This document shows, one piece after another, positions 25,097 to 63,299 of a stretch of DNA of 64,000 bases. The notes beneath the pieces are model-generated. The model did not search any database. It was given only the letters and a program-made list of their open reading frames with translations, and had not been told where the DNA came from. The first letter of the stretch is position 1, and the number at the start of each line of letters is the position of its first letter. The translations under genes and the position numbers were made by a program. Source of the DNA: Acidobacteriota bacterium (GTDB lineage Bacteria > Acidobacteriota > Thermoanaerobaculia > Gp7-AA8); NCBI GenBank assembly GCA_016184115.1, contig JACPDH010000077.1, positions 64,103-128,102 of the forward strand, in the 5' to 3' direction.

Positions 25097-25234
25097 TTAT
25101 GGACCGGGTCCGAGGACCGCGTTGTCGTTGTGTCGTGTTCCGTCGATCGCCTGCTATTCGCTGCAGCGGAATCGAGTCGATCGCCGCGCCGCTCGTCGTC
25201 GACGATGCCGATCATTCGTTATACTTCGCGCTGA

Positions 25235-45573: not shown

Positions 45574-45576
45574 AGA

Positions 45577-45758
45577 CATTTCGGATTTCGAATTTCGGAT
45601 TTCGAATTTGCTTCGCAAGGCTGCGATCGCCACGCTCCCTTCAGGGTGAACTTCGGCGTGGGCCGGGAGATCCGAAGTTGCTTCTGCGTGGCCACCCCAG
45701 CCTTGCGAGGCAAATCCGAAATCCGAAATTCGAATTTCGAAATCCCAAATCCGAAATG
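45577..45758. repeat. Heptamer-tandem-repeat palindromic element A (ATTTCGG/ATTTCGA units; palindromic GC-rich core)
   Basis: Left arm CATTTCGGATTTCGAATTTCGGATTTCGAATTTGC, right arm GCAAATCCGAAATCCGAAATTCGAATTTCGAAATCCCAAATCCGAAATG. Core contains CGCAAGGCTG...CAGCCTTGCG. Starts 4 nt after the dsbD stop and ends 6 nt before the yhbY stop. Confidence 0.8.
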
Positions 45759-45763
45759 CCTTC

Positions 45764-46054
45764 CTACTCCGGCACTTTGATCGTCGGATCTTCGGCTCGA
45801 CGCCGGTAGAGGATCGCGACCTTGCCGACGAGGCCGACGACTTCGGCGGTGGTCTGCTCGGCGAGCATTCCTGCAAGTTGCTTGCGTTCGTCACCTTCGG
45901 CGTCGATCTTCACTTTGATCAGTTCGTGTGATTCGAGGGCGCGTCCCGTCTCGGTAGAGACGCCCGTTGTGAGCCCGTGCTGGCCGATTCGGACGATCGG
46001 GTCGAGGTGGTGAGCAAGAGCCTTCAGGTACTTTCTCTGGCGTGGTGTCAGCAT
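45764..46054 (-). CDS. yhbY: Ribosome assembly RNA-binding protein YhbY (CRM domain)
   Basis: MLTPRQRKYLKALAHHLDPIVRIGQHGLT. Confidence 0.75.
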   Translation of the reverse strand: MLTPRQRKYLKALAHHLDPIVRIGQHGLTTGVSTETGRALESHELIKVKIDAEGDERKQLAGMLAEQTTAEVVGLVGKVAILYRRRAEDPTIKVPE

Positions 46055-46170
46055 CGATGGCCTCGGGGAAGGGAATGCGCGTCGCCGCGGCGTCATTGTA
46101 GCGGAGTCGGTCGGCTCGAACGCCGCTCATTTGACTGACTCGGAGGGCATGCGCTAGAGTTTGCCGCCCT

Positions 46171-46896
46171 TTGGAGGAGAGTATGGATCGCCAGGAACGC
46201 CACGACATCAAGCACGACAAATTCGTCGACGAGGTCGGTCACTACTACGACGAAGTCCGGAAGAACTCGCAGCGCGTTGTCATCGGAGTCGTCGGATTGC
46301 TCGTCATCATCGGAATCGGAATCGCGATCTGGGGATGGAACGCGCGGCAGGAGAAGGCAGCGCAGTCGCTCCTGGCCGGCGCGATCGAGACGTTCGAGGC
46401 ACCGGTTGGTATCGACGCCGTCGCCGATCCGAACCGTAAGGGTCCGGCCTTCGCGACCGAAGCGGAACGAGTGAAGGCGGCGGAAGCGAAACTCAACGAC
46501 GTCGCCTCGAAGTACTCGGGCAGCGATGCCGCACAGGTGGCGGGTCTCTATCTCGCGCAGATCGACATCTCGAAAGGGCAAACTGACGCTGCCATCAAAC
46601 GCTACGAGGAGTTCGTCAAGAAGAACTCCGGCAGCCTTCTAGCGGGTGGCGCGCAGATGAGTGTCTATCAGCTCAAGATGGCGACCGACGCGAAGATCGT
46701 CATTCCGGAGCTCGAGAAGGCCTCACAGGACGAGAAGTCGCCGCTGCCGAAAGAATCGGTCCTTTCCCTCCTCGCCGAGGCCTATGAGAAGAGTGGAGAC
46801 AAGGCGAAAGCGATGGACGTGTATCGCCGGATTGCGACCGAGTTTCCGCAGACGTCATATGCCGCCGACGCGCAGCAGAAGATCAACCGCGGCTGA
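46171..46896 (+). CDS. YfgM-like single-pass membrane TPR-type protein
   Basis: Cytoplasmic N-terminus, TM VVIGVVGLLVIIGIGIAIWGW, helical periplasmic repeat domain. Confidence 0.45.
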   Translation: MEESMDRQERHDIKHDKFVDEVGHYYDEVRKNSQRVVIGVVGLLVIIGIGIAIWGWNARQEKAAQSLLAGAIETFEAPVGIDAVADPNRKGPAFATEAERVKAAEAKLNDVASKYSGSDAAQVAGLYLAQIDISKGQTDAAIKRYEEFVKKNSGSLLAGGAQMSVYQLKMATDAKIVIPELEKASQDEKSPLPKESVLSLLAEAYEKSGDKAKAMDVYRRIATEFPQTSYAADAQQKINRG

Positions 46897-47159
46897 CGCG
46901 CCGACCTCTTGCAACGTATCCCGAAGCGCGGCCAAACGGCCGCGCTTCGTGCTTGATGGCGCCGCGCTGTCCCTTTAGGTTCGATCGTTCGGACACCGAT
47001 CGCGGGAAACGACGAGCCCGCCACCGGCCACCGGCCGGCGCGCCCGGGCGACATCGTGCGATCCACCGTCGTGATCGTTGACCGCGGCGTGTTTCCCGAT
47101 AAGCTGGCCTGAAGCCATACGCATTACGGAGGCTTCTCATCATCTACGTCGCGGGTCTC

Positions 47160-48350
47160 GTGCTCCTCTTCTGGTTCGTAATGTCGATCCAGACGCTCGT
47201 CAACCTCGTGACGATGCCTCGCCTTCGCGGAGCCGTTCATCCATCTGCAGGCGAGCCGCTCGTCTCGATTGTGATTCCGGCGCGCAACGAGGAAGCGCAT
47301 GTCGGCGCGACGGTCGAGTCAATGTTGGCGCAAAGCTGGACGAGGCTCGAGGTGATCGTCGTCGACGATCTGTCGACGGACGGCACCGCGGAAGTCGTTC
47401 GTGCGCTTGCCAAGCGCGATCCGCGCGTTCGACTCGTGGAGGGTGCGCCGCATCCCGAAGGGTGGCTCGGGAAGCCGTGGGCGCTCGAGCAGGGAGGGGA
47501 AGCTGCCCGCGGCGAGCTGATCATCTTCGTCGACGCCGACGTGCGCTACGCCGCGGGGACAATCGAAGCTGTGGTCGCGGAGATGCGCGCGCATCCTGAA
47601 ACCTCGATGCTCGCGCTCTTCCCTCGCTTCGAGATGTTCGGGTTCTGGGAGAACGTCCTGATGCCGGCGCTGCCGAGCGGGCTCTTCATGGGGATCCCGG
47701 TCTGGCTCTCGAACAGGACGACGCTGCCGCTGCTCGGCGTCGGTGGCGGGCCAGGAAACGTCGTCCGGCGTGAAACCTACGAGACGATTGGGAGGCACAC
47801 GAGGTTGCGCGACGCCGTGATCGATGACATCGGGCTTGCGCGGATCGTCAGGGCATTCGGTTTCCGCTCGCGATCGGTCAATGCTGACGGCTTGATTCGA
47901 ATCCGGATGTATCGAGGACTGCGCCAGATCGTCGACGGTTTCACGAAGAACTCCTTCATGGTATTCGCGGGCTCCTTGCCGAAGGCGTTCGCTGTGAGCG
48001 TGATCATTCCGATCACGCATCTCCTGCCGTGGGTATGGGGAGGGATTGTCATCTCCTCGGTGGTGGCGGGCCATCCGCCGCGCGGCTCGGCGGTCCTCGG
48101 TGGAACGGCTCTCGTGCTCCTGCTCCTCACGCGGCACGCGCTCTTCGGGGTGCTCGGTTTCAGCCGCCTCGCGGCACTCGGTGGGCAACCGCTCGAGGTA
48201 ATCGTCTGGCTCTGGATCTTCGCCCGCTCGACCTGGAAGGTCGGCGTGATGGGACGGCTCCACTGGCGGGGCCGCGACTACCCGGCGCGAGTCACGGCAT
48301 TCGGAAACTTCGATGGCGTCGTAAAGCGGGTCAGCGATCGAAGTGGGTAG
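47160..48350 (+). CDS. Membrane-associated GT2 family glycosyltransferase
   Basis: VSIVIPARNEEAHV...VVDDLSTDGT...IFVDADV (DxD). C-terminal TM segments. Confidence 0.65.
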   Translation: MLLFWFVMSIQTLVNLVTMPRLRGAVHPSAGEPLVSIVIPARNEEAHVGATVESMLAQSWTRLEVIVVDDLSTDGTAEVVRALAKRDPRVRLVEGAPHPEGWLGKPWALEQGGEAARGELIIFVDADVRYAAGTIEAVVAEMRAHPETSMLALFPRFEMFGFWENVLMPALPSGLFMGIPVWLSNRTTLPLLGVGGGPGNVVRRETYETIGRHTRLRDAVIDDIGLARIVRAFGFRSRSVNADGLIRIRMYRGLRQIVDGFTKNSFMVFAGSLPKAFAVSVIIPITHLLPWVWGGIVISSVVAGHPPRGSAVLGGTALVLLLLTRHALFGVLGFSRLAALGGQPLEVIVWLWIFARSTWKVGVMGRLHWRGRDYPARVTAFGNFDGVVKRVSDRSG

Positions 48351-48573
48351 GTCCGTCAAACGAGACGGGGGGCCGGCGCGCCGCCCGCCGAGGCTGCTCC
48401 TCCCGCCCCGAACGAAACTGTGCGGTCGCGTTTTGGGTGCGTCGCGACATCTAAGTCGTGCCATTACAACGAATTAGAAGGCGCGCCGCGCCGCGGGTGC
48501 TCGCAGAAAGTGACAGCGTGAAATATGTTGCGTGCGGCGAGGTTAGAGTAGCCGCGAGCTCTCCGCTCTCCCT

Positions 48574-49341
48574 ATGACAAGACCGATCGAGCGCCATCAG
48601 CAGTTGATCGAGGAAATCCTCGCGAAGTACGACCTCAGCCACGACTTCGGCAGGAAGATGGCGTACGAGGCGGCGATTGAGCACGCCCGCGAGCACCTGA
48701 CCGAGGATCCGCACTGCAACGACTTCCTTCGCGCGGTCGCGAACCGTCTCGGATTCCAGCCGGTCGTCTTCGACACGATCGAGAGCCGCGTGAAGCTCCG
48801 CAAGGGAGCATGGGTCGATGCGTGGATCTCCGATGAGGATGATGAAGTCGCGATCACGGCCACGCGCGAAGGGTTGCAGTACGTCATCGACGTGCTGACG
48901 CAGCTTCGCAACTCGACCGAGGAAGGCGAGCACGTCCATCTCGATCGCGGCATCGCGCCGATGACCGATAACTCCGCACATCTCGTCTTCTTCAAAGAGG
49001 AAGAGACATGGTTCACGGGAGCGCCGGAGGAGCAGGAACCGTACCCGCCGCGCGACATCGAGCCGGAGCAGGTCTTCGCATTCCAGACACTGCAATATCC
49101 TCCCGAAGGTCTCGCGGTGACGCCTTACAAGCTCTACCGCGTGACGGGATTCGAAGCCGCGCCCGAAGACGACCCTAACGTGAAGGATTTTCCCGAGGGA
49201 GATCCGAAGCGCTTCTATCTCTTCCGATTCCGGAACGACGGCGGCCAGCTCGTCACGTACGGCTTCCATCTCGACGACCCTGGGATGAACTTCTTCACGC
49301 ACAAGGAAGTCATGTCGCTCGTGATGGGGGTGGAAGAGTAA
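48574..49341 (+). CDS. Hypothetical acidic protein, no recognised domain
   Basis: 255 aa. Coding-like GC3. Followed immediately by repeat element B. Confidence 0.4.
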   Translation: MTRPIERHQQLIEEILAKYDLSHDFGRKMAYEAAIEHAREHLTEDPHCNDFLRAVANRLGFQPVVFDTIESRVKLRKGAWVDAWISDEDDEVAITATREGLQYVIDVLTQLRNSTEEGEHVHLDRGIAPMTDNSAHLVFFKEEETWFTGAPEEQEPYPPRDIEPEQVFAFQTLQYPPEGLAVTPYKLYRVTGFEAAPEDDPNVKDFPEGDPKRFYLFRFRNDGGQLVTYGFHLDDPGMNFFTHKEVMSLVMGVEE

Positions 49342-49575
49342 CGCGGAAGGCGAAACGCGGAAGGCGAAACGCGAAACTGATAGCCCGCGCAAACCACTAG
49401 CCTTCGTATCTCCACATCTGCGACCGATCAAGAACGCTCTCCCTTTCCGTAGCTACTTTCGCTCCCGGCGATTCTGCTTCACGATTTCGCATTCTGCGTT
49501 CCGGGTTTGGCGCTCCGCGTTTCGCAATTCGCGTTTCGCAATTCGCCTTTCGCATTCCGCACTCCGCCTTCCCTT
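49342..49575. repeat. Heptamer-tandem-repeat palindromic element B (GCGAAAC/GCGGAAG units)
   Basis: Left arm CGCGGAAGGCGAAACGCGGAAGGCGAAACGCGAAACT begins 1 nt after the stop. Right arm ...TTTCGCAATTCGCGTTTCGCAATTCGCCTTTCGCATTCCGC... is its imperfect inverted counterpart. Confidence 0.8.
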
Positions 49576-49613
49576 TTCCGCCCGTGTGATCCCCATCATT
49601 GCGACCTCCGAGG

Positions 49614-49640
49614 GGGCGGGATACGCTCCGCCCGGTTTTT
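49614..49640 (+). terminator. Candidate intrinsic terminator/attenuator directly upstream of the RBS of the PLP-enzyme gene
   Basis: GGGCGG-gatacgct-CCGCCC followed by GGTTTTT, then the RBS GAGGAGG and the ATG at 49656. Confidence 0.4.
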
Positions 49641-49655
49641 CGAGGAGGTTTTGCG

Positions 49656-50960
49656 ATGGCGGCTTGGGAATGGTGGGACTGGTGGCAGGCTCGGAAGGAT
49701 CGCTATCTTCTCGATGACGAGCCGTTTCTCGACGCCGAGCGCTTCGCGAGCATCTGCGTCGGCACCGGACTTCCCGACATCGCGCAGCGATCGACCTTCG
49801 CGTTTCGCAACGTGCGCGACGGGGCCGATCGCTTCATCGGGAAGTCGAAGCACGGCGAGAAGCCATTCGCGCGCATCTACACGCGTCTCGGAAATCCGAC
49901 GACCGAGTATCTGGAGCGTGTTCTCTTCCGGCTCGAATGCCAGCATCTGATCGACAAGGCACTCGACGCGGACGAGCAGGAACCGACCGTCGGAAGCATG
50001 GTGCTCGCCTCCGGTATGGGAGCGATCGCCGCACTCCTTCTTTCCCTCGTCCGCACCGGCGACGCAGTCATCGCGGGGAATGTCTACGGTTGCACGGATA
50101 GCTTGCTGCGAGGGCTGCAGCAGAAGTTCGGAGTCGATCCGGTCTTCGTCGACACGACCGACATCGCACAGATCGAGGAAGCATTCCGGACGCACCCCAA
50201 TGCCAGGGTCGTCTTCCTCGAGAGCCCCGAGAACCCGAACCTCGGGATGGCAGACATCCGCAAGGCCGGCGCGCTTGCGCGAAAGCACGGTGCGCTTCTC
50301 GTCGTCGACAACACATTCTGTAGCGCGTACCTGCAGCAGCCCTTCCGACTCGGTGCGGACTTCGTCGTGCAGAGCCTGACGAAATACGTGAACGGTCACT
50401 CGACTTCGATCGGTGGGCACGTGCTCGGGCCATTCCCACACATGACCAACGAGTTTTTCGTCTGGGCGAAGGACCTGGGGCCGACGCCGAGCCCGTTCGA
50501 CAGCTGGCTCAACGGCCTCTGTGTGCAGACGTTGCCGCAGCGCATGGAGCTCGCCTGCGCGAGCGCAGCGACGCTCGTCGAGTTCTTAGCCGCACACCCG
50601 AGGATCGAGAAGCTCTACTTCCCCGGGCTGCCGACGCACCCGCAGCACCATCTCATCGGACCGCAGATGCGGAACGGGGGAGCGATGATTGCGTTCGAGC
50701 TCGAAGGGGGCTATGAGCCTGCGGTGAAGCTGATGGACTACTTCGCGCGCCACGACACGCCGATGGAGCTGGCCGTGAGTCTGGGCAGCGTGATCAGCTA
50801 CATTCAGCACCCGGCGAGCATGACGCACAGCGTCGTGCCGGAGGCCGACCGGCTCGCGCGAGGCATCAGCAACGGTCTCGTCCGGTTCAGCGTCGGGCTC
50901 GAGGGCGTTTCGATCCTCCGCGACGCGTTCGAGGAAGGCCTCGACCTGGCCTACCGGTAG
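49656..50960 (+). CDS. Cys/Met-metabolism PLP-dependent enzyme (cystathionine gamma-synthase / methionine gamma-lyase family)
   Basis: PLP-lysine context SLTKYVNGHS. Family-typical length. Start ATG at 49656. Confidence 0.75.
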   Translation: MAAWEWWDWWQARKDRYLLDDEPFLDAERFASICVGTGLPDIAQRSTFAFRNVRDGADRFIGKSKHGEKPFARIYTRLGNPTTEYLERVLFRLECQHLIDKALDADEQEPTVGSMVLASGMGAIAALLLSLVRTGDAVIAGNVYGCTDSLLRGLQQKFGVDPVFVDTTDIAQIEEAFRTHPNARVVFLESPENPNLGMADIRKAGALARKHGALLVVDNTFCSAYLQQPFRLGADFVVQSLTKYVNGHSTSIGGHVLGPFPHMTNEFFVWAKDLGPTPSPFDSWLNGLCVQTLPQRMELACASAATLVEFLAAHPRIEKLYFPGLPTHPQHHLIGPQMRNGGAMIAFELEGGYEPAVKLMDYFARHDTPMELAVSLGSVISYIQHPASMTHSVVPEADRLARGISNGLVRFSVGLEGVSILRDAFEEGLDLAYR

Positions 50961-51039
50961 ACTCCTGGCGCAAATCGAGCTGCCGGACGGTATTCTGGGG
51001 CAGTGATCAGCCCGGCTGCACGCCGGGAGCGGAGGCTAC

Positions 51040-51894
51040 GTGTCGATTCAACGCATCGCAGTCCTTGGCGCCGGAACGATGGGGCGCGGCATCGCGTATC
51101 TCGCCGCACTCGCCGGCTACGAAACCACGCTCTACGACGTGACCGACCACATCGTTCACGACGCGATGACGCTGCTACAGGGGACCTTTTCGAAAGCGGT
51201 CGAAAAGAAGAAGCTCGACCCGGCCGAGGCGCACAAATCGATCTCGCGCATCGTGGCGACGAGCGACTTCGAAGCGGCGGTGCGCGAGGCGGATTTGATC
51301 GTCGAAGCGGTCCCCGAGGATCTCAGCCTCAAGCGCGAGTTGTATGCGCAGATCGACGTGCTGACGAGGGACCACGTGATCCTCGCGTCGAACACCTCGT
51401 CGATCTCGATCAGCGAGCTCGCGGCATCCGTCGAGGAACCCGAAGTGTTCATCGGAATGCACTTCTTCAATCCGCCGCATCTGATGAAGCTCGTCGAGAT
51501 CGTCGTCGGCGATGCGACGAGCGAAGCGACGGTCTCCGCCGTGCGCGACGTCGCGACGCGCATGGGGAAGGAGACGATCGTCGTGAAAGATTTCCCCGGC
51601 TTCGCGACCTCCCGTCTCGGAGTTGCGATCGGTCTCGAGGCGATCCGGATGTTCGAGGACGGAGTCGCGTCGGCGGTCGACATTGACAAGGCGATGGAGC
51701 TCGGCTACAACCATCCGATGGGGCCTCTTCGCCTAACGGACCTCGTCGGGCTCGACGTGCGGCTCGGCATCGCCGAGTACCTCGCCAAGACACTCGGCCC
51801 CCGTTTCGATCCGCCGCGCGTGCTTCGCGAGATGGTCGCAAACGGTCAACTCGGGAAGAAGACGGGCAAGGGCTTCTACGAATGGGAGCCGTGA
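51040..51894 (+). CDS. hbd: 3-hydroxybutyryl-CoA / 3-hydroxyacyl-CoA dehydrogenase
   Basis: Rossmann IAVLGAGTMGRGIAYLAALAGYETTLYD. GTG start with RBS GGAGG. Confidence 0.8.
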   Translation: MSIQRIAVLGAGTMGRGIAYLAALAGYETTLYDVTDHIVHDAMTLLQGTFSKAVEKKKLDPAEAHKSISRIVATSDFEAAVREADLIVEAVPEDLSLKRELYAQIDVLTRDHVILASNTSSISISELAASVEEPEVFIGMHFFNPPHLMKLVEIVVGDATSEATVSAVRDVATRMGKETIVVKDFPGFATSRLGVAIGLEAIRMFEDGVASAVDIDKAMELGYNHPMGPLRLTDLVGLDVRLGIAEYLAKTLGPRFDPPRVLREMVANGQLGKKTGKGFYEWEP

Positions 51895-52643
51895 GCCTCC
51901 CCGCCGACTCTTACGGTGCGTTCGCGCGCGTCTATGATCGTGCGCTCGGCGATCTGTTCATGCGCGGCGCGGCCGCGGTGCTGCGGGCGCTCGAATCGGA
52001 GTATCCGACCGAAACGCGGACGCATCTCGATGTTGCATGCGGCACGGGGCTCGCGATGCGCCATTTCGCGGCTCGAGGGTACGCGACGCGAGGAATCGAC
52101 GCCTCGTATGCGATGGCCTCGAGGGCGCGCCGCCGCGGACTCGATGTCGTCGTAAGCGACGTGCGAACTTCCGTCGTTCGTGCGCGTTTCGAGCGCGTCA
52201 CGTGTCTTTACGACAGCCTGAATCATCTCCTCGAGCGCGGCGATCTCGCTCGCGCTTTCGCATCGGTCGCATCCGTGATGGGTGAGTCGTCCCTCTTCTG
52301 GTTCGATCTCAATCACCCCGAGTCGTACCGCGAGGTCTGGGCGATGGCGGAGCCGTTCGAGTCGGGCGACGCCGTCTACAACCTCGAGATCGATACGCAT
52401 TACGACGAAGCGGCGAACCTCGCGACCGCGCGCGTACGCGGCTGGCACACAGACGCGGGGGTGCGGCACACGATTGACGAGACGCACTACCAGCGTGCGT
52501 GGGAGCGCGACGAAGTCGTCGAGATCCTTCGCGACGCGGGGCTCGAAACGGTCGACGTATTCTGCTTCGATCCGTTCGCGGCAAAGGTGTTTGGCGGGAT
52601 CGAAGTGAAGGAGATGTACGTCGCGCGGAGAAAAGCGGAGTAA
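51882..52643 (+). CDS. Class I SAM-dependent methyltransferase
   Basis: LDVACGTGLAMRHFA (motif I), ...VTCLYDSLNHL. Confidence 0.65.
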   Translation: MGAVSLPADSYGAFARVYDRALGDLFMRGAAAVLRALESEYPTETRTHLDVACGTGLAMRHFAARGYATRGIDASYAMASRARRRGLDVVVSDVRTSVVRARFERVTCLYDSLNHLLERGDLARAFASVASVMGESSLFWFDLNHPESYREVWAMAEPFESGDAVYNLEIDTHYDEAANLATARVRGWHTDAGVRHTIDETHYQRAWERDEVVEILRDAGLETVDVFCFDPFAAKVFGGIEVKEMYVARRKAE

Positions 52644-52795
52644 TGCGGACTGCGGAACGCGGAACGCGAATTGAATGACGGTTCGAGGGTGCGTTCAACG
52701 ATGCTCAACCCCGACCGCACACGAGCTCCAGTGTGATTCGTTCGAGATGCCTCGACTCGCATTTCGCACTTCGCATTCCGCGTTCCGAATTCCCG
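52644..52795. repeat. Heptamer-tandem-repeat palindromic element C (GCGGAAC units)
   Basis: TGCGGACTGCGGAACGCGGAACGCGAATTG begins 1 nt after the stop. Inverted arm TCGCATTTCGCACTTCGCATTCCGCGTTCCGAATTCC. Confidence 0.75.
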
Positions 52796-52820
52796 TCGGC
52801 ACTGTAGAATCTGGCTACCT

Positions 52821-53612
52821 ATGAACCTCGGAATCTCCGGTCGCGGTGCGATCGTCGGTGGCTCCAGCTCCGGTATCGGTCTCGCGTGCGCCGATCTTCT
52901 GCTCGGCGAAGCTGTTCGCGTCGTTCTCGTGTCGCGCGGCGAAGAGAAGCTCGCCCGGGTCGCGGCCTCACTTTCGTCGAAGCACGAGCGTGAAGTTTTC
53001 TGGGTTGCGGCCGATCTCGCGACCCCGGAAGGCGCGGCCACTGCGTTTCGTGAGGCGGAAGCGAAGCTCGGTGCGGTCGACATCGTCGTCAACAACGCGG
53101 GGGGCCCCAAGTCGGGACCCTTCGAGTCGCTCTCCGACGCCGACTGGGAGAGCTCGTTCCACCTCAACCTGATGAGCGCGGTGCGCCTCACGCGGCTCGC
53201 GTCGGCAGGGATGCGAGAGCGGCGCTGGGGGCGTATCGTCAACATCACCTCGACTTCGGTGAAACAGCCGGTCGAAGGACTGATGCTGTCGAACGCAATC
53301 AGAATGTCGGTCGTCGGCTTCGCGAAGACTCTCGCCGACGAGCTCGGCGCATTCGGCATCACGGTGAATACGGTCGCGCCTGGCTACACCGGCACCGAAC
53401 GGCTCGCCGAGCTCGCCGCGGCGAAGGCGCAGAGGAGCGGAGTGACGAAAGAGTCGGTGCTCGAGGAGTGGCGCTCCAGCGTTCCCTTGCGAAGGATCGG
53501 CCTTCCTGAAGAGGTCGCAGCCGCGGTCGTCTGGCTCTGCTCGGAGCAGGGGGCGTACATCACGGGGGTCACATTGTCCGTCGACGGCGGAAGGACGCGA
53601 GCGTCGCTGTAG
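52821..53612 (+). CDS. SDR-family oxidoreductase
   Basis: GGSSGIGLA cofactor motif. NNAG. Catalytic region typical of the family. Confidence 0.75.
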   Translation: MNLGISGRGAIVGGSSSGIGLACADLLLGEAVRVVLVSRGEEKLARVAASLSSKHEREVFWVAADLATPEGAATAFREAEAKLGAVDIVVNNAGGPKSGPFESLSDADWESSFHLNLMSAVRLTRLASAGMRERRWGRIVNITSTSVKQPVEGLMLSNAIRMSVVGFAKTLADELGAFGITVNTVAPGYTGTERLAELAAAKAQRSGVTKESVLEEWRSSVPLRRIGLPEEVAAAVVWLCSEQGAYITGVTLSVDGGRTRASL

Positions 53613-53628
53613 CGGGCGGAGTCCGAGA

Positions 53629-55560: not shown

Positions 55561-55580
55561 CGTAGACAGGAGAGCGCAAC

Positions 55581-58433
55581 ATGCGAGCACTTCTCTTCAC
55601 CGTGGTATCCGTATTCGCCGGGGCGCTCGCCCTGGCGCAGACTCCGCCCCAGGCGCGAGAAGGCGATTCGGTCGCCTGGCATGTCGTTAGGCCGGGCGAG
55701 ACGCTGAGCGCCATCACGTACAAATACCTCGGTGACGCGTCGCTCTGGCCGGAGAACCAACGACTGAATCCTGGCATCTCCGATCCCGACAAGCTCACAC
55801 CGGGGCAGCGTGTGCTCGTGATCACCGCCCGCGAGATCGCGGCGCGACGCGCGAAGGTGGACAAGCTCTCGCGCAAGGTCGACAAAAAACTCCAGCAGGA
55901 GTCGTGGCTTGCCGCGCACATCGGCGATCAGCTCGTCGAGCGCGAAGGGCTTCGAACTTTTGGGAGCTCTTCGGCGGAGCTCGGGCTCGATGACGGTACC
56001 CGGCTTCAGATGACCGAGAATTCGATCGTTTTTCTTCGCGAGTACAAGTCGTCGATCCGCAAGGTCGATCGGAGCAAGATCGAAGTCGTCGAAGGAGGAG
56101 TCGATCTCGCGATCGCCCCCGCGGCACGTCGTTCGAGGCGAGAGGTCGAAGTGCTGATCGGAGACGTTCAGGCGCGGCCGAAGGCAGTGGGCGGCGCGAC
56201 GGAAGCGCGCGCGAGGCGCGATGCGGAGACGAAGTCGGCGAAGCTGATGGTCTACGCCGGAACGACCGAGGTCGAGTCGGCCGGTGTGAAGGTGCAAGTG
56301 CCGAAGGGGATGGGCACGTCGGTGAAGGAAGGCGCGCCGCCCGCGCCGCCGCAGAAGCTGCTCGCGGCACCCGCTCTGGTCACTCCCGCGGCCGGCGCCG
56401 AGAGTCGAGGCGCGACCGAATTGACCTGGTCGCCTGTCCCCAGGGCGGCGAGCTACATCGTCGAGGTCTGCAGGGATGCGAAATGTGCAGGGCTCGCCGG
56501 GCGTCAAACCGGCCTAACTGACACGAAGGCGGCATTCGCGTCGCTGCCGGCTGGCGCCCTCTTCTGGCGTGTGACCGCGCGAAGCCAGGGCGGTCTCGAC
56601 GGGTATCCATCGAAGCCGCGCGCGCTGTCGATGATTCGCGTCATCAGCGGGCGGGTGTTGCTCGATGACAGGCGCGGTGTGAGGGATAACCTTCCGCTCG
56701 CCGGCATCGGCGGAGCGCTCGTGAGGCTTCATCTCGACAACGGTGACGGTGCGCCGGGAGACGGCGACGTGATGATGGGAGAGGTCCGCACCGATGCCAG
56801 AGGCGCCTTCGAGCTCGGGCGCGTCGAGAACGGAACGTTCTGGGTCGTGGTCGAAGCGCGCTCCGCGTCGCCTTCCGGGTCGTGGCGCGAGCAGACTTAT
56901 GGTCCGGCCGGATCATTGTGTTCCGACGCTGAGGGTGGAACGTCGATGCTGACTGCCGCCGGCGTCTGCTACGGCGGGCGCCGCGGTGGTGTTCCGGATG
57001 CCTTCGAGACACTCGCTGGCTCCGAACACGTTGCGCGCGTCGAGGTGAGCGATCAGGACGAGCTCCCCGATCTCGAGTTCGCGTTCAGCGATACCGCCGT
57101 GACCACGGCGTCGGATTCCGAGCCCGCGGTTCAGGGCTCGCTCCGGCAGTTCGTTCTCAATTCCCAGGCTGTGTCTGGGAACCACATCATGCAGTTCGTT
57201 CCGATGGAGCCAGCGAACGCGACCGCCGGTGACGCCTCGTGGTGGCGTGTTTCGCTCGTGGCTCCGCTGCCCGCTCTTCCTGACCGCACGCTCATCGAAG
57301 GTGAGGCGATGCGTGCGCAGCGTCCCTTCGCGCGGATTGACTCGAATCCCGGCACACTTGGATCGTCGGATGCGGTTGGTGTGGACGCTGCCCGGATCGT
57401 GAATCCCGATCGTCCGGAGCTGGAGATCGACGGCAGAGGCTCGGTGCCCGTACTGATCTCGGGCCGAGCGCTCGGAGGAGTGTCGAATGTGGCGCTCATC
57501 GGCGCTACCCGGCAGCTGATCGAGTCGACCGGGGAGTTTGCGGTGTCGAACTCCATCATCGGTCTCGGCGCCGACGGCTCCGTGCCCACTTCCGCGCCGA
57601 TCGTCGGGATCGACACGACAGGCACGCTCAGGATCGAGCGAACGCTCGTCGCGCATCAGTCGGCCGTCGGCATTCGCGTCTGGTCGGACGACGGGCGGCC
57701 ACGCCTCGTCGCCCGCGACCTCGAGGCAACCGGCTGCGGGCCTCACCCGGTTCTTCAGATCCGTTCCTCGGGCGCCGTCATCGAGAGGTCGTACATCCAC
57801 CGCTGCGACGACGCGGCCGGAAGCGTCGGCATCGAGTTCCAGGGCCGCAGCGTTGCGTTAGGCGCGATCTGCAGGAATCACATGGTCACCGGCTCGACGA
57901 TACGCGGCTTCGATGCCGGAATCGTGTTGCGGCTCGGTGCGATGGACAATGTGATTGAGGGTAACGTGATCGACGCGTCGGGGCACGGGATCATGTTCCA
58001 ACACATCCAGTCATTCTGGACACCGAAGGGAAACCGCATCTCGAGGAATTCGTTTCTCGGGGGAGGCGAGCCGATCTCACTCGAAGGGCGGCCGGGCCTC
58101 GGATTTGAAGAAAAGAAGCTCTACGAGCTCGCCGTATCCTGCGCGGGCAGCGGAACGAGCGTCGACCGAGGACTCGACTTCATGGGTGTCGGTACGATCA
58201 AGCGAGATGGAAGCTCGCTGCGCGTCACCGGAACGGTCTGCCCCGATACGACGGTCGAGATCTACGCGCGGAGCGAAGGGAAGATCGAGTACGTCGGATC
58301 TGTGAAGGGTGATGCCGCCGGCGCGGTCGATGCTGTTGTGGAGACTCCGGGCGGGGCTCCACGCGACCTCGCGCTCGTGACGATCGACAAGACCGGCACG
58401 ACGTCGCGCATGAAGTTCGGTTCGATCAGGTGA
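55581..58433 (+). CDS. Large secreted protein: LysM + FecR-like + carboxypeptidase-regulatory-like + right-handed parallel beta-helix repeats
   Basis: Signal peptide. LysM HVVRPGETLSAITYKYLGD...LTPGQRVLV. Beta-helix repeat-like NVIEGNVIDASGHGIMFQ. 950 aa. Confidence 0.55.
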   Translation: MRALLFTVVSVFAGALALAQTPPQAREGDSVAWHVVRPGETLSAITYKYLGDASLWPENQRLNPGISDPDKLTPGQRVLVITAREIAARRAKVDKLSRKVDKKLQQESWLAAHIGDQLVEREGLRTFGSSSAELGLDDGTRLQMTENSIVFLREYKSSIRKVDRSKIEVVEGGVDLAIAPAARRSRREVEVLIGDVQARPKAVGGATEARARRDAETKSAKLMVYAGTTEVESAGVKVQVPKGMGTSVKEGAPPAPPQKLLAAPALVTPAAGAESRGATELTWSPVPRAASYIVEVCRDAKCAGLAGRQTGLTDTKAAFASLPAGALFWRVTARSQGGLDGYPSKPRALSMIRVISGRVLLDDRRGVRDNLPLAGIGGALVRLHLDNGDGAPGDGDVMMGEVRTDARGAFELGRVENGTFWVVVEARSASPSGSWREQTYGPAGSLCSDAEGGTSMLTAAGVCYGGRRGGVPDAFETLAGSEHVARVEVSDQDELPDLEFAFSDTAVTTASDSEPAVQGSLRQFVLNSQAVSGNHIMQFVPMEPANATAGDASWWRVSLVAPLPALPDRTLIEGEAMRAQRPFARIDSNPGTLGSSDAVGVDAARIVNPDRPELEIDGRGSVPVLISGRALGGVSNVALIGATRQLIESTGEFAVSNSIIGLGADGSVPTSAPIVGIDTTGTLRIERTLVAHQSAVGIRVWSDDGRPRLVARDLEATGCGPHPVLQIRSSGAVIERSYIHRCDDAAGSVGIEFQGRSVALGAICRNHMVTGSTIRGFDAGIVLRLGAMDNVIEGNVIDASGHGIMFQHIQSFWTPKGNRISRNSFLGGGEPISLEGRPGLGFEEKKLYELAVSCAGSGTSVDRGLDFMGVGTIKRDGSSLRVTGTVCPDTTVEIYARSEGKIEYVGSVKGDAAGAVDAVVETPGGAPRDLALVTIDKTGTTSRMKFGSIR

Positions 58434-58446
58434 GGGGAGGCCGCTG

Positions 58447-59520
58447 ATGGTTAAGCGTGTCGGTATTCTGACGGGAGGGGGCGACTGCCCAGGGCTCAAC
58501 GCGGTCATCCGAGGCGCCGTGCGCACGCTCATTCGAGAGTACAAGTGCGAAGTCGTCGGGATCGAGCTAGGTTTCGAAGGGCTGATGCAGGGGCGTGGCT
58601 ATCCGATGACACTCGACGCGGTCCGCGGCATTCTCCACAAAGGCGGCACGCTGCTCCGCACGTCGAACCGCGGCAATCCGTTCGACTATCCGACTAAAGA
58701 CGATCCGAACGTACGCGAAGACCGGTCGGCGGAATGCCTCGACAACTGCCGGCGAATGGGCATCGACGCGCTGATTGCGATCGGAGGCGAGGGAACGCTC
58801 AAGATTGCGGACAAGATGGGCGACCTCGGATTTCCAATCGTCGGCGTGCCGAAGACGATCGACAACGACGTCCGGCAAACCGACTTCAGCTTCGGCTTTC
58901 AAACCGCGGTCTCGATCGCGACCGAGGCGATTGACCGCCTGCACACCACGGCCGAGAGCCATAACCGTGTCATGGTGCTCGAAGTCATGGGCCGCCACGT
59001 CGGTTGGATCGCGCTTCACTCCGGAATCGCGGGAGGGGCCGACATCATCCTCATCCCCGAGATCCCGTACAAACCCGAGGAGATCGCGAAGAAGATCAGG
59101 CTTCGGCAAGCACGTGGCCAGCAGTTCGACATCATCGTCGTTGCCGAGGGAGCGAAGCGTGACGGCGGGGATGAGGTCTGGGCCGACAAAGGTTCGAAAC
59201 GTCTCGGTGGGGTCGCGTTCCGGGTGGCGGAGGAGATCGGCGAGCTGAGCGACCTCGAGGTGCGCGTCACCGTGCTGGGGCATCTCCAGCGGGGAGGCTC
59301 GCCGGAAGCGATCGATCGTGTCTGGTCAACGCTCTACGGCAACCGCGCCGCTGACTTCGTGGCTGAAGGGATGTGGGGGATGATGACCGCTCTTCAGAAC
59401 GGCGAGATCGTGCCGGTGCCCATCAAGGACGCGATCGGCCAACTCAACACCGTATCGCCCGACGGCCCGCTCATTCGAACGGCGAGGGCGTTGGGGATAT
59501 CGTTTGGAGATGGGCGATAG
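58447..59520 (+). CDS. pfkA: 6-phosphofructokinase (PfkA family, ATP- or PPi-dependent)
   Basis: RVGILTGGGDCPGLNAVIRGAV, GGEGT, MGR motifs. Confidence 0.85.
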   Translation: MVKRVGILTGGGDCPGLNAVIRGAVRTLIREYKCEVVGIELGFEGLMQGRGYPMTLDAVRGILHKGGTLLRTSNRGNPFDYPTKDDPNVREDRSAECLDNCRRMGIDALIAIGGEGTLKIADKMGDLGFPIVGVPKTIDNDVRQTDFSFGFQTAVSIATEAIDRLHTTAESHNRVMVLEVMGRHVGWIALHSGIAGGADIILIPEIPYKPEEIAKKIRLRQARGQQFDIIVVAEGAKRDGGDEVWADKGSKRLGGVAFRVAEEIGELSDLEVRVTVLGHLQRGGSPEAIDRVWSTLYGNRAADFVAEGMWGMMTALQNGEIVPVPIKDAIGQLNTVSPDGPLIRTARALGISFGDGR

Positions 59521-59523
59521 GCG

Positions 59524-59765
59524 GGTCAAAGGTCAAAGGTCAAAGCAGGCTGCGAGAGGCGAATCGCGAGAGGCGCGAGGCGAAAGGCGAGAGGCGAAGG
59601 GCGAAAGGCGAAAGGCACGCCGGTGGCCTCGTAGCGCCGGCGTCCTCGCCGGCCGTCGCGTGGGCGTCCCGCCCGCGCCAAAGTCTTTTCGCAGCACGCC
59701 GGCGTCGCGATGTCGCCGCCTTCAGCCTGCTCAGCGCCTCTCGCCTGCTTTGACCTTTGACCTCC
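59524..59765. repeat. Heptamer-tandem-repeat palindromic element D (GGTCAAA x3 + GCGAGAG/GCGAAAG units)
   Basis: GGTCAAAGGTCAAAGGTCAAAGCAGGC...GCGAGAGGCGAATCGCGAGAGGCGCGAGGCGAAAGGCGAGAGGCGAAGGGCGAAAGGCGAAAGGC with inverted arm GCCTGCTCAGCGCCTCTCGCCTGCTTTGACCTTTGACC. Starts 4 nt after the pfk stop. Confidence 0.8.
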
Positions 59766-59829
59766 TCGAACCCGCTTCTTGACACGTCGCGTACAATTCA
59801 CGCCATCTAACGTCTTTCGAGGAGCAACC

Positions 59830-60627
59830 ATGGGAATTCTTGTCGACTACAGCGTCGAGAACGGCGTAGCGGTCATCGCGTTGAACGATCCGCCGGCGAA
59901 CACCTACACATACGAAATGAACAAGGAGCTCGACACGGCGATCCTCGAGGCTCGCATGGACGACAGCGTTCACGTGATCGTGCTGCGGGGCGCGGGAGAC
60001 AAGTTCTTCTCTGCCGGCGCGAACATCAAGATGCTTTCGGAGGTCACCCCGGGCTTCAAGTACTACTTCTGCCTTCACGCGAACGAGACGCTCAGCCGCC
60101 TCGAGCAGACGCCGAAGCTCGTCATTGCGGCGATCAACGGCCACTGCGTCGGCGGCGGACTCGAGATCGCGATGGCGGCTGACATGCGCATCGCGAAGAA
60201 GGGGGCCGGCAAGATGGGGCTCCCCGAAGTCTCGCTCGGTGTCCTCCCGGGAACGGGCGGAACGCAGCGCCTGTCGCGCATCGTCGGCAAGTCGAAGTCG
60301 ATCGAGCTGATGATCGAAGGCGGCCTCTTCGAGCTCGAGGACGCGCTCGAGATGGGAATCATCAATTACCTCTGGCCGGCCGAAGAGGATGGCAAGGCGT
60401 GGTGGGATCGTGTCATGGAGTACGCCCGCAGCTTCTGTCCGCCGAACAAGGCGTCGAGGGCGGTCGGTCGGATCAAGCGCTCGGTGCAGTCGGGCTGGGA
60501 GCTTCCGTTCGAGTCGGCGCTCACGCTGGAGCGCGAGCTGCAGCAGCAGCTCTTCCAGTCGAGCGACGCGAAAGAAGGGCTCAACGCCTACGTCACGAAG
60601 CGGACGCCGAAGTTCGAAGGCAAGTAG
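59830..60627 (+). CDS. Enoyl-CoA hydratase/isomerase (crotonase family)
   Basis: VIALNDPPANTY...RGAGDKFFSAGANIKML...GHCVGGGLEIAMAADMR. Confidence 0.8.
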   Translation: MGILVDYSVENGVAVIALNDPPANTYTYEMNKELDTAILEARMDDSVHVIVLRGAGDKFFSAGANIKMLSEVTPGFKYYFCLHANETLSRLEQTPKLVIAAINGHCVGGGLEIAMAADMRIAKKGAGKMGLPEVSLGVLPGTGGTQRLSRIVGKSKSIELMIEGGLFELEDALEMGIINYLWPAEEDGKAWWDRVMEYARSFCPPNKASRAVGRIKRSVQSGWELPFESALTLERELQQQLFQSSDAKEGLNAYVTKRTPKFEGK

Positions 60628-60653
60628 CGCCACGAACGCAGCGCATCGAACCG

Positions 60654-60680
60654 AAGGGCGGCCGCGAGGCCGCCCTTATT
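60654..60680. terminator. Palindromic terminator-like hairpin between convergent genes
   Basis: GGGCGGCC-gcga-GGCCGCCC followed by TTATT. Confidence 0.45.
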
Positions 60681-60704
60681 CGCGCTCGATTGCTGGCGGC
60701 GGCC

Positions 60705-61310
60705 TTACACCGAGTCGATTCCCGCCTGGCTCAGTGCTTCTGCAAGCAACTCGCTTAGCCCCTGCTCCGCGGCCGAGGCGCGAAGGTAGGTGAGGTCGAG
60801 CGTGGCACGTGCCTTGATCAGTCCCGTGACATCACGCCATTGGCGATCGGAGATGCCGTTGCCGGCTCGGAACCACATCAGCTTTCGCACGATCAGGTCC
60901 TCCGGCGAGTACAAGCTGACCGAAACTCCGGGCATGACATCCATCCTCGTCGAGCGCTCGAGTTGCCGGTCTGCGAATGGGGCATCCTCGGCCACGAAGA
61001 TGTCGACCTTCATTCCCAGAGTAATGTGGATGATGTTGAACGCCGTCCGCCGCCGTACAGCGTCGAGAACGGTTTCCTCATCGACGTAGTAGTCGGGTCC
61101 AAGTGCGCCGACGAACGCCCTGGCTTGCGGCTCCGAAAGCCTGGCCATCAGGTCGACGTCGAACGTGGAGCGCGGCTCTCCCAGCAGACCGCTGGCGACC
61201 GAACCTCCCACTACGTATCGGATGTCGAGACGATCGAAGATCTGCCCGATGGCAGCCGCAAGCAGGACGGGATCGGCCTTCGTCACGGCCTGTGTTCCTC
61301 TGGATCCCAT
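60705..61310 (-). CDS. Nucleotidyltransferase-like hypothetical protein (minimal-NTase fold suspected)
   Basis: Start chosen at the internal Met (MGSRGTQAV...). LDIRYVVGGSVASGLLGEPRSTFDVDLMARLS resembles MNT-type GS...D.D motifs. The longer 327-aa ORF N-terminus looks non-coding. Confidence 0.35.
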   Translation of the reverse strand: MGSRGTQAVTKADPVLLAAAIGQIFDRLDIRYVVGGSVASGLLGEPRSTFDVDLMARLSEPQARAFVGALGPDYYVDEETVLDAVRRRTAFNIIHITLGMKVDIFVAEDAPFADRQLERSTRMDVMPGVSVSLYSPEDLIVRKLMWFRAGNGISDRQWRDVTGLIKARATLDLTYLRASAAEQGLSELLAEALSQAGIDSV

Positions 61311-61552
61311 CCGTACACGCGGATCATCGTGTCGCGGTCGAGACGCATCGACGCAAGTCGAAGAAACGTCTCGCGCTCCGACGCATTCGGGTGACGCATC
61401 CGGATTCCGATGAGAGCCATTTCCTGGACGGAATCGTTGAACGAGCGAAACAGCTCGACTCGTTCCTGTAGCGACATCCGTCTCCAGAGCTCGAACTGCA
61501 TCCGGTCGATCTTTTCGGACGTGTCGCGCGCCTGGGGCGTGTACCCACTCAC
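61283..61552 (-). CDS. Small hypothetical protein overlapping the start of the NTase-like gene
   Basis: 89 aa, helical, coding-like. Overlaps the downstream gene by about 28 nt. Possible toxin-antitoxin-like partner. Confidence 0.3.
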   Translation of the reverse strand: MSGYTPQARDTSEKIDRMQFELWRRMSLQERVELFRSFNDSVQEMALIGIRMRHPNASERETFLRLASMRLDRDTMIRVYGWDPEEHRP

Positions 61553-61628
61553 AACCCAATTCTAAGGCCGCCGGTGCCGATTCGGCCGCCCTTTGACTTT
61601 TCCCGCTGTCCCGAGAAGAATGCCCGCC

Positions 61629-63086
61629 ATGTCCGATTCGACCATCCAGCGGCAGCTCTACATCAACGGCGAGTTCGTCGACGCCCACAGCGGCGAGACG
61701 TTCACCTCGATCAACCCTGCGACCGAAGAGGCGATCTGCGACGTCGCTTGTGCCGATGCGGCCGACGTCGACCTCGCGGTTGCCTCGGCGCGCGCGCAGA
61801 TGGAGCCAGGCTCCGCGTGGCAGAAGATGAAGCCGCGCGACCGGGCGAAGGTGATGTGGAAACTCGCCGACATCCTCTCCTCGCGCGCTTCCGAGATCGG
61901 ACGCATCGAGACGATCGACAATGGGAAGCCGATCTTCGAGTCGCAGTACGTCGACGTGCCGGCCGCCGCGGAGTGTCTCTACTACTTTGCCGGATGGTCG
62001 GGGAAGGTCACCGGGGAGACGATTCCGATCCAGGAGGGAGCGTTCACCTACACGACGCGCGAGCCGTTAGGCGTGGTCGGCGCGATCACGCCGTGGAACT
62101 TCCCGCTGATGCTTGCGGTCTGGAAGATTGCTCCGGCGCTCGCGTGCGGGAACACCGTCGTCCTCAAACCGGCGGAGTACACCTCGCTTTCGATCCTCAA
62201 GTTCGCCGAATACGCCCGTGAGGCGGGTCTTCCGCCGGGCGTGCTCAACATCAGCCCCGGGAAGGGCACGGTCGCCGGCGCGGCGCTCGTCGACCATCCA
62301 GGCGTCGACGCGATCGCCTTCACCGGCTCGACCGTCGTGGGGCGCGAGATCATGACGCGCGCTGCGCGGACGGTGAAGAAGGTTTCCCTCGAGCTCGGCG
62401 GAAAGTCGCCTAACATCGTCTTTGCCGACGCCGACCTCGAGGCTGCCGCGCGCGGCGCCCTCAGTGCCATCTTCTACGGCAAAGGCGAAGTCTGCGCCGC
62501 CGGATCACGTCTCCTCGTCGAAGATTCGGTGCACGACGCGCTCGTCGAAAAGGTGCGGGAGCGCGCCGCGAAGATGGTCGCCGCCGATCCACTCGACCCG
62601 AAAACGCGCCTCGGGGCGATCGTCTCGAAGAAGCAGATGGAGTCGGTGTTAGGCTACATCGAGACGGGGAAGAACGAGGGCGCGACCGTCGTCGCCGGCG
62701 GCGGGCGCGCCGACATCGGAACAGGCAAAGGCTACTTCGTGCAGCCGACTGTCTTCACCGGAGTCGAGCCATCGATGACGATCGCGCGCGAGGAGATCTT
62801 CGGGCCGGTCCTCGCGACGCTCCGCTTCAGCGATCAGGATGATGCCGTGAGGAAGGGAAACGACTCGCTCTACGGCCTCGCCGCCGCGCTCTGGACACGC
62901 GACGTCTCGAAGGCGCACCGCGTCGCGCGCGCACTGAAGGCTGGCACCGTCTGGGTGAACACCTACAACATGTACGATCCCGCGCTCCCGTTCGGCGGAT
63001 TCAAGGAGTCGGGCTTCGGTCGCGATCAGGGGCGCGACGCGCTCGACAAGTACACACAGACGAAAAGTGTCTGGATGGCGTTGTAG
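61629..63086 (+). CDS. NAD(P)-dependent aldehyde dehydrogenase
   Basis: ALDH glutamate region LELGGKSPNIVF. Catalytic Cys region GEVCAAGSRLLV. Start at MSDSTIQRQLYING. Confidence 0.85.
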   Translation: MSDSTIQRQLYINGEFVDAHSGETFTSINPATEEAICDVACADAADVDLAVASARAQMEPGSAWQKMKPRDRAKVMWKLADILSSRASEIGRIETIDNGKPIFESQYVDVPAAAECLYYFAGWSGKVTGETIPIQEGAFTYTTREPLGVVGAITPWNFPLMLAVWKIAPALACGNTVVLKPAEYTSLSILKFAEYAREAGLPPGVLNISPGKGTVAGAALVDHPGVDAIAFTGSTVVGREIMTRAARTVKKVSLELGGKSPNIVFADADLEAAARGALSAIFYGKGEVCAAGSRLLVEDSVHDALVEKVRERAAKMVAADPLDPKTRLGAIVSKKQMESVLGYIETGKNEGATVVAGGGRADIGTGKGYFVQPTVFTGVEPSMTIAREEIFGPVLATLRFSDQDDAVRKGNDSLYGLAAALWTRDVSKAHRVARALKAGTVWVNTYNMYDPALPFGGFKESGFGRDQGRDALDKYTQTKSVWMAL

Positions 63087-63087
63087 G

Positions 63088-63162
63088 GAACGCGAAACGC
63101 GGAACGCGGAACGCGGAACGCGAAACGCGGAATGCGAAACGCTAAACGCTGAGCGTGAAACG
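63088..63162. repeat. Heptamer tandem repeat array E (AACGCGG/AACGCGA, about 10 units), single arm
   Basis: GAACGCGAAACGCGGAACGCGGAACGCGGAACGCGAAACGCGGAATGCGAAACGCTAAACGCT begins 2 nt after the ALDH stop. Confidence 0.75.
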
Positions 63163-63299
63163 AGCGATTCGGCGCTACACGCACAGTTTGTCGTCTCTCC
63201 TCCTTCTCCCGCTTCGCGGGATCGGTCGGCAGACGACGAACTGTGCGTTCTGGATGCGTCGCGCCCCGCGCAGGGGTGCCGGCGAGGCATCGAACCTCG

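Follow-up and report, generated by a model that had tools for sequence, protein, structure and literature searches.

What are the tandem-heptamer palindromes that lie directly behind stop codons in an Acidobacteriota genome, and what process put them there? The question is raised by a stretch of 64,000 nucleotides (nt) from contig JACPDH010000077.1 (assembly GCA_016184115.1, positions 64,103 to 128,102; Thermoanaerobaculia), hereafter the window, in which an initial annotation made from the letters alone had noticed five intergenic elements built of direct 7-nt units, four of them with an inverted copy of the array. We found all five again, at the same coordinates, and call them A to E. In our reading they are extragenic palindromes related in kind to repetitive extragenic palindromes (REPs), to the paired REPs known as REPINs and to MITEs (miniature inverted-repeat transposable elements), with arms that are heptamer microsatellites. 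They would be seeded by copying or nesting, resized by replication slippage, and largely neutral or at most REP-like in their effects on RNA. We give this reading about an even chance of being correct.

Tandem Repeats Finder and a lag-autocorrelation scan, both run on the whole window (G+C 63.6%), agreed on the sites of the arrays. At 15 of 21 self-matches there were 10 period-7 arrays, compared with a mean of 1.4 and a maximum of 4 in first-order Markov simulations, and at the strict threshold of 17 of 21 there were seven, against none for every other period from 4 to 12. Period 7 alone is enriched in the window, and the arrays are real and period-specific. All the strict arrays are confined to five gene gaps between 45.5 and 63.2 kb, which bears out the clustering at 45-63 kb described before. 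The GC skew of the window has no switch to account for this clustering, and the array-rich stretch extends further downstream in relatives. Read directly, the left array starts 0-4 nt 3' of a stop codon in all five elements, much as the initial annotation had stated. The stops are those of dsbD (TAG), an Imm32-like gene (TAA), a methyltransferase gene (TAA), pfk (TAG) and an aldehyde dehydrogenase (ALDH) gene (TAG), with gene identities taken from Pfam matches. The window has three divergent spacers, and none of them holds an element.

Four of the five gaps (A-D) fold as long imperfect hairpins, with z-scores against dinucleotide shuffles from -2.7 to -9.7, and the predicted pairing of inverted arms therefore holds for these four; E is a lone array. 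The architecture is shared as had been proposed, but a single (G/C)CGAAA(C/G) core is too loose a description, since there are at least four unit flavours among the five elements (ATTTCGG, GCGRAAC, GGTCAAA and GGCGARA). None of these units contains a run of three G. The arms are frequently unequal, and super-periods of 14 and 21 nt are visible in the arrays of A, B and E. An Rfam scan of the window at the gathering threshold matched a tRNA-Gly only and none of the elements.

Element A (45574..45761) makes up the entire convergent spacer between dsbD on the plus strand and yhbY on the minus strand as one hairpin (z -9.7). Its left array of ATTTCGG and ATTTCGA units (ATTTCGR, 45578-45609) and its right array of the AAATCCG type (45712-45757) lie in arms of 58 nt that are 88% complementary, and the right arm stops 6 nt short of the yhbY stop codon. 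Besides A, element E is also placed between convergent genes. Element B (49340..49579, plus strand) has a left array of (AACGCGG AAGGCGA)n at 49340-49377, the first unit of which overlaps the TAA of the Imm32-like gene, and a right array of the TTTCGCG/ATTCGCG type at 49485-49579. It folds with z -2.7, and it is the only element with a short CCCTTTTCC tail. In element C (52644..52794, plus strand), the left array of TGCGGAC/CGCGGAA units (52644-52673) stands directly 3' of the methyltransferase TAA, and the right array of CGCATTY units (52757-52794) is followed by a -10-like motif, TGTAGAAT, and then by a gene of the SDR family; the fold has z -3.3.

Element D (59521..59765, plus strand) is nested. 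Its outer arms, GGTCAAA three times at 59524-59545 and TTTGACC twice at 59746-59763, enclose inner arms of the GGCGARA flavour, and these enclose a centre that is well conserved among three orthologues (59617..59724). The inner arms, also on the plus strand, are nine GCGARAG units on the left (59552-59616) and about 1.5 units on the right, CGCCTCTCGCC at 59735-59745, so that the right-hand partner arrays together span 59735-59763. The whole folds with z -8.4 and includes perfect arms of 21 nt. In the centre, a GTAG-tagged, GC-rich hairpin of the classical REP type with a GCCGGCG/CGCCGGC stem (59631-59660) is followed by a terminator-like hairpin, GCGTGGGCG-tcc-CGCCCGCGC and then AAAGTCTTTT (59660-59689). 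Element E (63087..63162, plus strand) consists of about 10 GGAACGC/GAAACGC units that begin at the first base after the ALDH TAG; it lacks an inverted partner, as the initial annotation had correctly seen. The region around E folds with z -3.8, with the array itself unpaired and a separate hairpin of 18 bp formed. This second, non-heptameric hairpin (63179..63248) lies 3' of the array in the convergent spacer between the ALDH gene and a gene for a small membrane protein.

To place the elements in time we compared them with orthologous sites. A scan of species-representative genomes for the phosphofructokinase (PFK) encoded by pfk returned one syntenic relative, a Thermoanaerobaculia (Acidobacteriota) metagenome-assembled genome (L001) with 92% PFK identity and 80-89% DNA identity to the window. 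Further relatives came from a protein database and contig look-ups, namely L002 and L003 (93% PFK identity), L005 (90%), L006 (79%), L007 (68%) and L004 (67%). Period-7 arrays occur only in the four relatives with at least 90% PFK identity, and the 79%, 68% and 67% relatives have none. In these more distant relatives the spacers at the element sites are just 0-44 nt long, except for one of 210 nt: in L004 dsbD overlaps yhbY, no gap separates the methyltransferase gene from the SDR gene and 38 nt follow pfk; in L007 44 nt follow pfk; and in L006 the spacer between pfk and the enoyl-CoA hydratase (ECH) gene has 210 nt, free of heptamers. The elements are therefore recent additions, made to spacers that two of the three relatives further away keep very short.

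The closer relatives have arrays at matching sites, yet their unit numbers, units or centres differ. The inner units of D number nine in the window, six in L002 and three in L001; L001 has GCCAGAG there in place of GGTCAAA, and L005 keeps the GGTCAAA outer arms around a quite different centre without inner arrays. At the B site, the hairpin of L001 is built of GAATGAA/TTCATTC units, and its interior is unrelated. At the C site, L001 conserves the right arm and has a left arm of GGCGAGA units, into which the methyltransferase open reading frame (ORF) runs for about 25 nt. Element E is missing from L002, where the two convergent stop codons are separated by a 12-nt spacer, GGGAACGCTCTG, that includes one GGAACGC unit; at the site of the 18-bp hairpin, L001 has a larger one. 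Further downstream, L001 and L002 have extra elements, namely AGTTGTT/CTAACAA around a canonical terminator, GGAACGY 3' of a small ORF and GGCGARA 3' of an epimerase gene, and these also vary in presence and length. Thus, element F has nine CTAACAA units in L001 and none in L002, and the array behind the small ORF is present in L001 and absent from L002. In L001, moreover, a stretch of about 800 bp (19850-20640) holds a minus-strand gene that is missing in L002, and (CTAACAA)9 ends 6 nt from the stop of this gene, so that a new array accompanied a new convergent gene end.

In the relatives, too, the arrays stay close to stops, at 10 nt or less in 9 of 11 measured distances (10 elements). The stop codons before D and E are at unchanged positions in relatives without those elements, and the elements therefore sit behind pre-existing stops and do not create them. 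Changes of unit number, super-periods of 14 and 21 nt and unequal arms are what replication slippage yields.

An all-against-all comparison by BLAST of the copies in the window and in the clade loci found that arms of a given flavour recur at different sites. GCGRAAC arms are common to B, C, E and the L001 element G, and GGCGARA arms to D, the C site of L001 and the L002 element H. A stretch of 16-21 nt from the centre of D (GTAGCGCCGGCGTCC...) also recurs in the non-orthologous element H (L002 13699-13719). The window has five elements in its 64 kb, and the clade about 15 in some 100 kb; their interiors are dissimilar.

Beyond the clade, we searched for (GCGRAAC)3 and (GGCGARA)3 in IMG/VR and for the first pattern also in JGI metagenomes. 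The first pattern occurred in at least 120 JGI loci (767 kb, median G+C 0.68), which contain 362 period-7 arrays, compared with 70, 33 and 84 arrays of periods 6, 8 and 9. The JGI results here and below refer to the matches listed, among which none was close to the window organism and one, L109, could be assigned to Gemmatimonadota. Of 290 period-7 arrays, 185 (about 64%) have a partner in reverse complement no more than 400 nt away, matching at 16 or more of 18 positions, and controls gave 2-3. Distances between arrays and genes were anchored at stop codons, because an array without stop codons allows the called start of an ORF to slide upstream across it. Measured in this way, about one array in five (about 40% of the elements) abuts the stop of a gene, with a clear peak at 0-5 nt, and 43 of 62 stop-adjacent arrays have a downstream partner, the median span of the element being 102 nt. 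AACGCGG was seen more often than CCGCGTT beside stops (33 vs 8); a palindrome reads alike on both strands, and we therefore rejected this bias as a sign of transcription, as it reports hairpin polarity only.

Many copies in the metagenomes follow one dispersed palindromic scheme, TGA-(AACGCGG)3-4-AACAG, a variable 20-60 nt, and CTGTT-(CCGCGTT)3-4-TCA. Its members include L040, L042, L081, L083, L103, L126 and L134, and only L109 has been traced, to the phylum named above. At its termini the scheme has TGA on both strands, which frequently doubles as the stop codon of the gene beside it. Two pairs appear orthologous, and the centres differ in L040/L126 and are similar in L042/L103. Within this scheme, the arm AACGCGG-AACGCGG-AAGTCGG-AACGCGG-AACAG recurs at at least five unrelated loci around variable centres. 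Because the variant unit AAGTCGG holds the third place at all of them, the shared order would require copying or conversion between loci rather than independent slippage.

In IMG/VR, (GCGRAAC)3 was found in 5 contigs and (GGCGARA)3 in 24, the latter ranging in G+C between 0.42 and 0.70 and combining several unit types in a contig. Two IMG/VR contigs are structural modules of tailed phages, L008 (4040-4830) and L011 (4850-5920), with genes for tail terminator and major tail proteins, for a portal protein and for the small and large terminase subunits. Here single arrays, (GCGRAAC)n and (CTGACTT)n, fill short gaps from a stop codon to the next ribosome-binding site. They are found between the genes for tail terminator and major tail proteins and beside the terminase genes, 4-6 nt after stops and without an inverted partner.

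These observations can be joined in a simple scenario. A hairpin-forming inverted repeat may be seeded in a spacer at the end of a gene, possibly as a copy brought from another locus, or by nesting within or around a terminator or REP-like hairpin that was already there; both D and F enclose an ordinary terminator-like hairpin. The arms would then lengthen or shorten by steps of 7 or 14 nt through replication slippage, and they would be kept alike by template switching or gene conversion, both from arm to arm and from one copy to another. Such an element would persist only where extra DNA is harmless, that is, in the stretch that opens at the first base behind a stop codon and ends at the next gene's promoter or ribosome-binding site or at a convergent stop, so that elements would only appear to begin at stop codons. 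In the window they do occupy nearly all the DNA that separates the stop codon from the following promoter-like motif or from the convergent gene's stop. Where the spacers of more distant relatives are tiny, beginning at the stop codon is a consequence of where additional DNA can be tolerated. The target preference for gene ends suggested by the initial annotation is therefore explained equally well by elements that fill the sole dispensable DNA. When transcribed, an element would form a long imperfect hairpin in the 3' untranslated region or in inter-cistronic RNA, with at most an effect like that of REPs or of bacterial interspersed mosaic elements (BIMEs), namely to hinder 3' exonucleases or to attenuate weakly.

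At D, the motif that bounds the element is TTGACACGTCGCGTACAAT, located 13 nt 3' of it and before the ECH gene (59779-59797). It is invariant in the window, L001 and L002, and is one base off in L005 and two in L006. It may be a promoter with an odd hexamer spacing of 7 nt, or a near-palindromic operator.

Several facts weigh against this reading. The arrays are restricted to the last 29% of the window, and about ten 3'-facing spacers between 1 and 45 kb are empty. The interiors of the copies are unrelated, with similarity limited to the arrays except between D and the L002 element H, and unit order differs between the copies of the clade, so that copy-and-paste is shown just for the metagenome loci and not for this genome. 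No transposase gene, and no gene for a REP-associated tyrosine transposase (RAYT), was found by a Pfam scan of the approximately 45 window ORFs, and comparison of filled with empty sites for E and for the inner arms of D revealed no target-site duplication. Finally, the occurrence of GCGRAAC in two phyla, and as single arrays in phage operons, could point to a sequence-specific function. The MITE-like mobility proposed by the initial annotation thus fares unevenly: close relatives do show polymorphism of presence and absence, but no target-site duplication was seen at the sites compared and no transposase among the window ORFs, and the interiors of the copies are unrelated.

Alternatively, the hairpins may be selected structures at the 3' ends of RNAs, which terminate transcription without a U-tract or shield the mRNA from 3' exonucleases, the repeats being an easy way to lengthen a stem; the initial annotation had similarly thought of a U-less terminator or an mRNA stabiliser. 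The location directly after stops and outside divergent spacers would suit such a role, as would the hairpin kept at the B site in two species despite differing units and interior, the terminator-like hairpins inside D and F, the presence of an RNase R gene in the window, and the report of long stems without a U-tract at 3' ends in GC-rich phyla (PMC13613805). On the other hand, the elements are not canonical intrinsic terminators. Their tails are not T-rich, as had been noted, and among the JGI matches listed the sequence after the distal arm has 3.3 T per 12 nt compared with 3.6 in controls (n=43), while ordinary terminator hairpins do exist elsewhere in this genome, after a TPR gene and after ECH. 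A scan for promoters and consensus terminators gave counts not above those of shuffles. Sense and antisense strands fold equally well, both in the clade elements and in 34 metagenome elements (p = 0.28), and hence G-U pairs give no sign that the transcribed strand is under selection. Moreover, the arms are very unequal, a partner is missing altogether in E and in the phage arrays, close relatives lack elements at the same genes, and at the site of C the genes of the distant relative L004 abut and are probably co-transcribed. The terminator or stabiliser role thus found no positive support, and we regard selection for RNA structure as unlikely.

The opposite simplification is that the arrays are pure microsatellites grown in situ, by slippage at seeds in neutral DNA and with partners made by quasi-palindrome template switching, so that nothing is mobile or selected. 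Heptanucleotide simple sequence repeats (SSRs) are described, in work cited by two papers (PMC4679880, PMC4692102), as the most abundant class of long SSRs in many bacteria and have been put down to polymerase slippage; the unit number varies among orthologues, some runs are perfect, the super-periods fit, and the single GGAACGC in the 12-nt spacer of L002 could be such a seed. This accounts poorly, however, for the few unit flavours that recur at unrelated loci, for the order of variant units shared by at least five metagenome loci, for the non-repeat centre sequence common to D and the L002 element H, for the GCGRAAC unit in two phyla and in phages, and for the inverted partners of 64% of the arrays among the JGI matches listed, which slippage alone would hardly make. 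We therefore consider an exclusively local origin doubtful. Recognition of the 7-nt units, on DNA or RNA, by a protein such as a cold-shock-type single-strand binder or a regulator might instead give the arrays a regulatory or chromosome-structuring role. The strict period across several unit flavours and the recurrence of GCGRAAC across phyla and phages are in its favour, as are the reported binding of CspB to heptamer repeats with one protein per unit, which one paper discusses (PMC4679880), and the effect of heptamer repeats on recF/recO expression in Nostoc (bioRxiv 10.1101/2022.06.06.494920). But at least four unrelated units lie within 18 kb, units are swapped between close relatives, orthologous sites do not conserve the arrays, and no candidate protein is at hand; we find a dedicated reader very improbable. 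Imperfect palindromes of 60-140 nt directly after ORFs, with conserved ends and a variable centre, also recall integron attC sites, or CRISPR-like arrays, behind gene cassettes. This idea is effectively refuted by gene content and synteny: the flanking genes are housekeeping genes in conserved order (dsbD, pfk, ALDH), the ends do not match RYYYAAC/GTTRRRY, and no integrase or cas gene was found among the window ORFs scanned. A 7-nt period without spacers rules out CRISPR, as the initial annotation had argued. Coding repeats and phase-variation SSRs were considered as well and rejected.

A bolder extension of the reading as slippage-resized extragenic palindromes is that there is one cross-phylum family of non-autonomous elements, TGA-(AACGCGG)n-centre-(CCGCGTT)n-TCA and its variants, shared by Acidobacteriota, Gemmatimonadota and their phages. 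An unrecognised trans-acting factor able to make 7-nt repeats, or to recognise them, would generate or mobilise the elements and place them at stops, and the repeats of Xanthomonas and cyanobacteria would be products of the same process. We put this forward as a speculation that is probably wrong in its full form.

Heptamer-repeat hairpins behind stop codons are not a new class, and the statement in the initial annotation that no such element had been described was mistaken, as the kind is already reported in Xanthomonas and cyanobacteria. The closest precedent is the GGGAATC arrays of Xanthomonas (GGGGAYT in Nostoc), which are about 90% intergenic, prefer about four units and form 70-75 inverted (convergent) pairs per genome with the potential for stem-loops (Rehm et al., 2015, PMC4692102). 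Their mean distance to the upstream ORF is 28 nt, and they are strongly biased towards adjoining or overlapping its stop codon, are rare between divergent genes, and vary in length and sometimes in presence among related species (PMC4692102). Our elements share with them the tandem 7-nt units, the adjacency to stops and, in A-D, the convergent pairing, E being a singlet. Unlike them, they combine several unrelated unit flavours within 18 kb and can be nested, as in D, and their units lack G-tracts, so that the G-quadruplex reading does not apply. The hosts differ too, being a member of the Thermoanaerobaculia (Acidobacteriota) here and, for the GCGRAAC unit, also Gemmatimonadota and phages. 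In the trnL intron of Nostoc, both sides of the P6b stem carry 7-nt repeat motifs, the length of the stem varies by gain or loss of such units on one or both sides, and the structure stays the same with alternative classes of unit (Kaasalainen et al., 2015, PMC4476775). The common feature is a hairpin stem composed of heptanucleotide repeats; the short tandemly repeated repetitive (STRR) sequences of Nostocales differ in their units, in their location in a group I intron or elsewhere in cyanobacterial genomes, and in having no described association with stop codons. The TAACTGA direct repeats of marine Beggiatoaceae are intergenic, occur in 2-6 copies in tight relation to ORF boundaries and are shared across distant phyla (MacGregor, 2015, PMC4679880). 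They consist of one unit, however, are mostly upstream of start codons and almost never inverted, and TAACTGA has stop codons in all frames, whereas most of the units described here have none.

The likeness to REPs, BIMEs and REPINs lies in extragenic inverted doublets that form hairpins near ORF ends, with conserved arms and a variable spacer, lineage-specific occurrence and fast turnover; mRNA stabilisation and attenuation are the roles proposed for REPs. GTAG REPs often abut ORFs or provide their stop codon (Di Nocera et al., 2013, PMC3733652), and REPINs have conserved arms around a variable spacer (Bertels and Rainey, 2011, PMC3116915). The arms of our elements are tandem heptamers, however, and not a single GTAG- or CGTC-tagged palindrome of 20-40 nt, which only the centre of D resembles, and no RAYT gene was seen among the window ORFs. 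With MITEs they have inverted termini in common, but no target-site duplication was seen at E or at the inner arms of D, and, apart from the stretch shared by D and the L002 element H, there is no common internal sequence. Like intrinsic terminators they are GC-rich stem-loops just 3' of a gene, but they have no U-tract, their stems of 30-60 nt contain many mismatches, and some of them enclose a terminator-like hairpin of their own. We found no paper on heptamer repeats in Acidobacteria, and literature searches for the unit strings (GCGGAAC and similar) returned primers and unrelated text only.

The window has other features apart from the heptamer elements. An insertion of about 0.9 kb (60678-61593), missing in L001 and L002, lies inside the ECH terminator hairpin and is bounded by a direct repeat, GGCCGCCCTT (60668-60677 and 61584-61593). 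It contains two minus-strand ORFs of lower GC3, one of which weakly resembles AbiEii/DUF6036 nucleotidyltransferases (E 0.002-0.009), and this suggests a cassette of the toxin-antitoxin type. A non-heptameric inverted repeat (63621-63791), with 40-nt arms that are 83% complementary and 91 nt apart, lies 3' of the small membrane-protein gene. The region 15701-28779 encodes four large membrane proteins that are paralogues and all have a YfhO-like match at the C-terminus; their genes are interleaved with those for two M20 peptidases and with a pilin-like gene.

Finally, what is new here is the host phylum, the use of units that cannot form G-quadruplexes, the combination of several flavours with nesting within 18 kb, and the occurrence of GCGRAAC in Gemmatimonadota and in phage operons. 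In practice, the arrays will disturb assembly, the calling of gene ends, into which ORFs can read, and the prediction of terminators in GC-rich soil lineages, and they are highly polymorphic strain markers. The layout known from Xanthomonas, in which about four heptamers begin at the stop codon and have an inverted partner, is independent of G-quadruplexes, as it recurs with units incapable of forming them. The implication is a general but unexplained process by which hairpins of 7-nt units are made or spread at the ends of bacterial genes, for which a bias in slippage, a copying machinery and a role of the RNA 3' end are the candidates.

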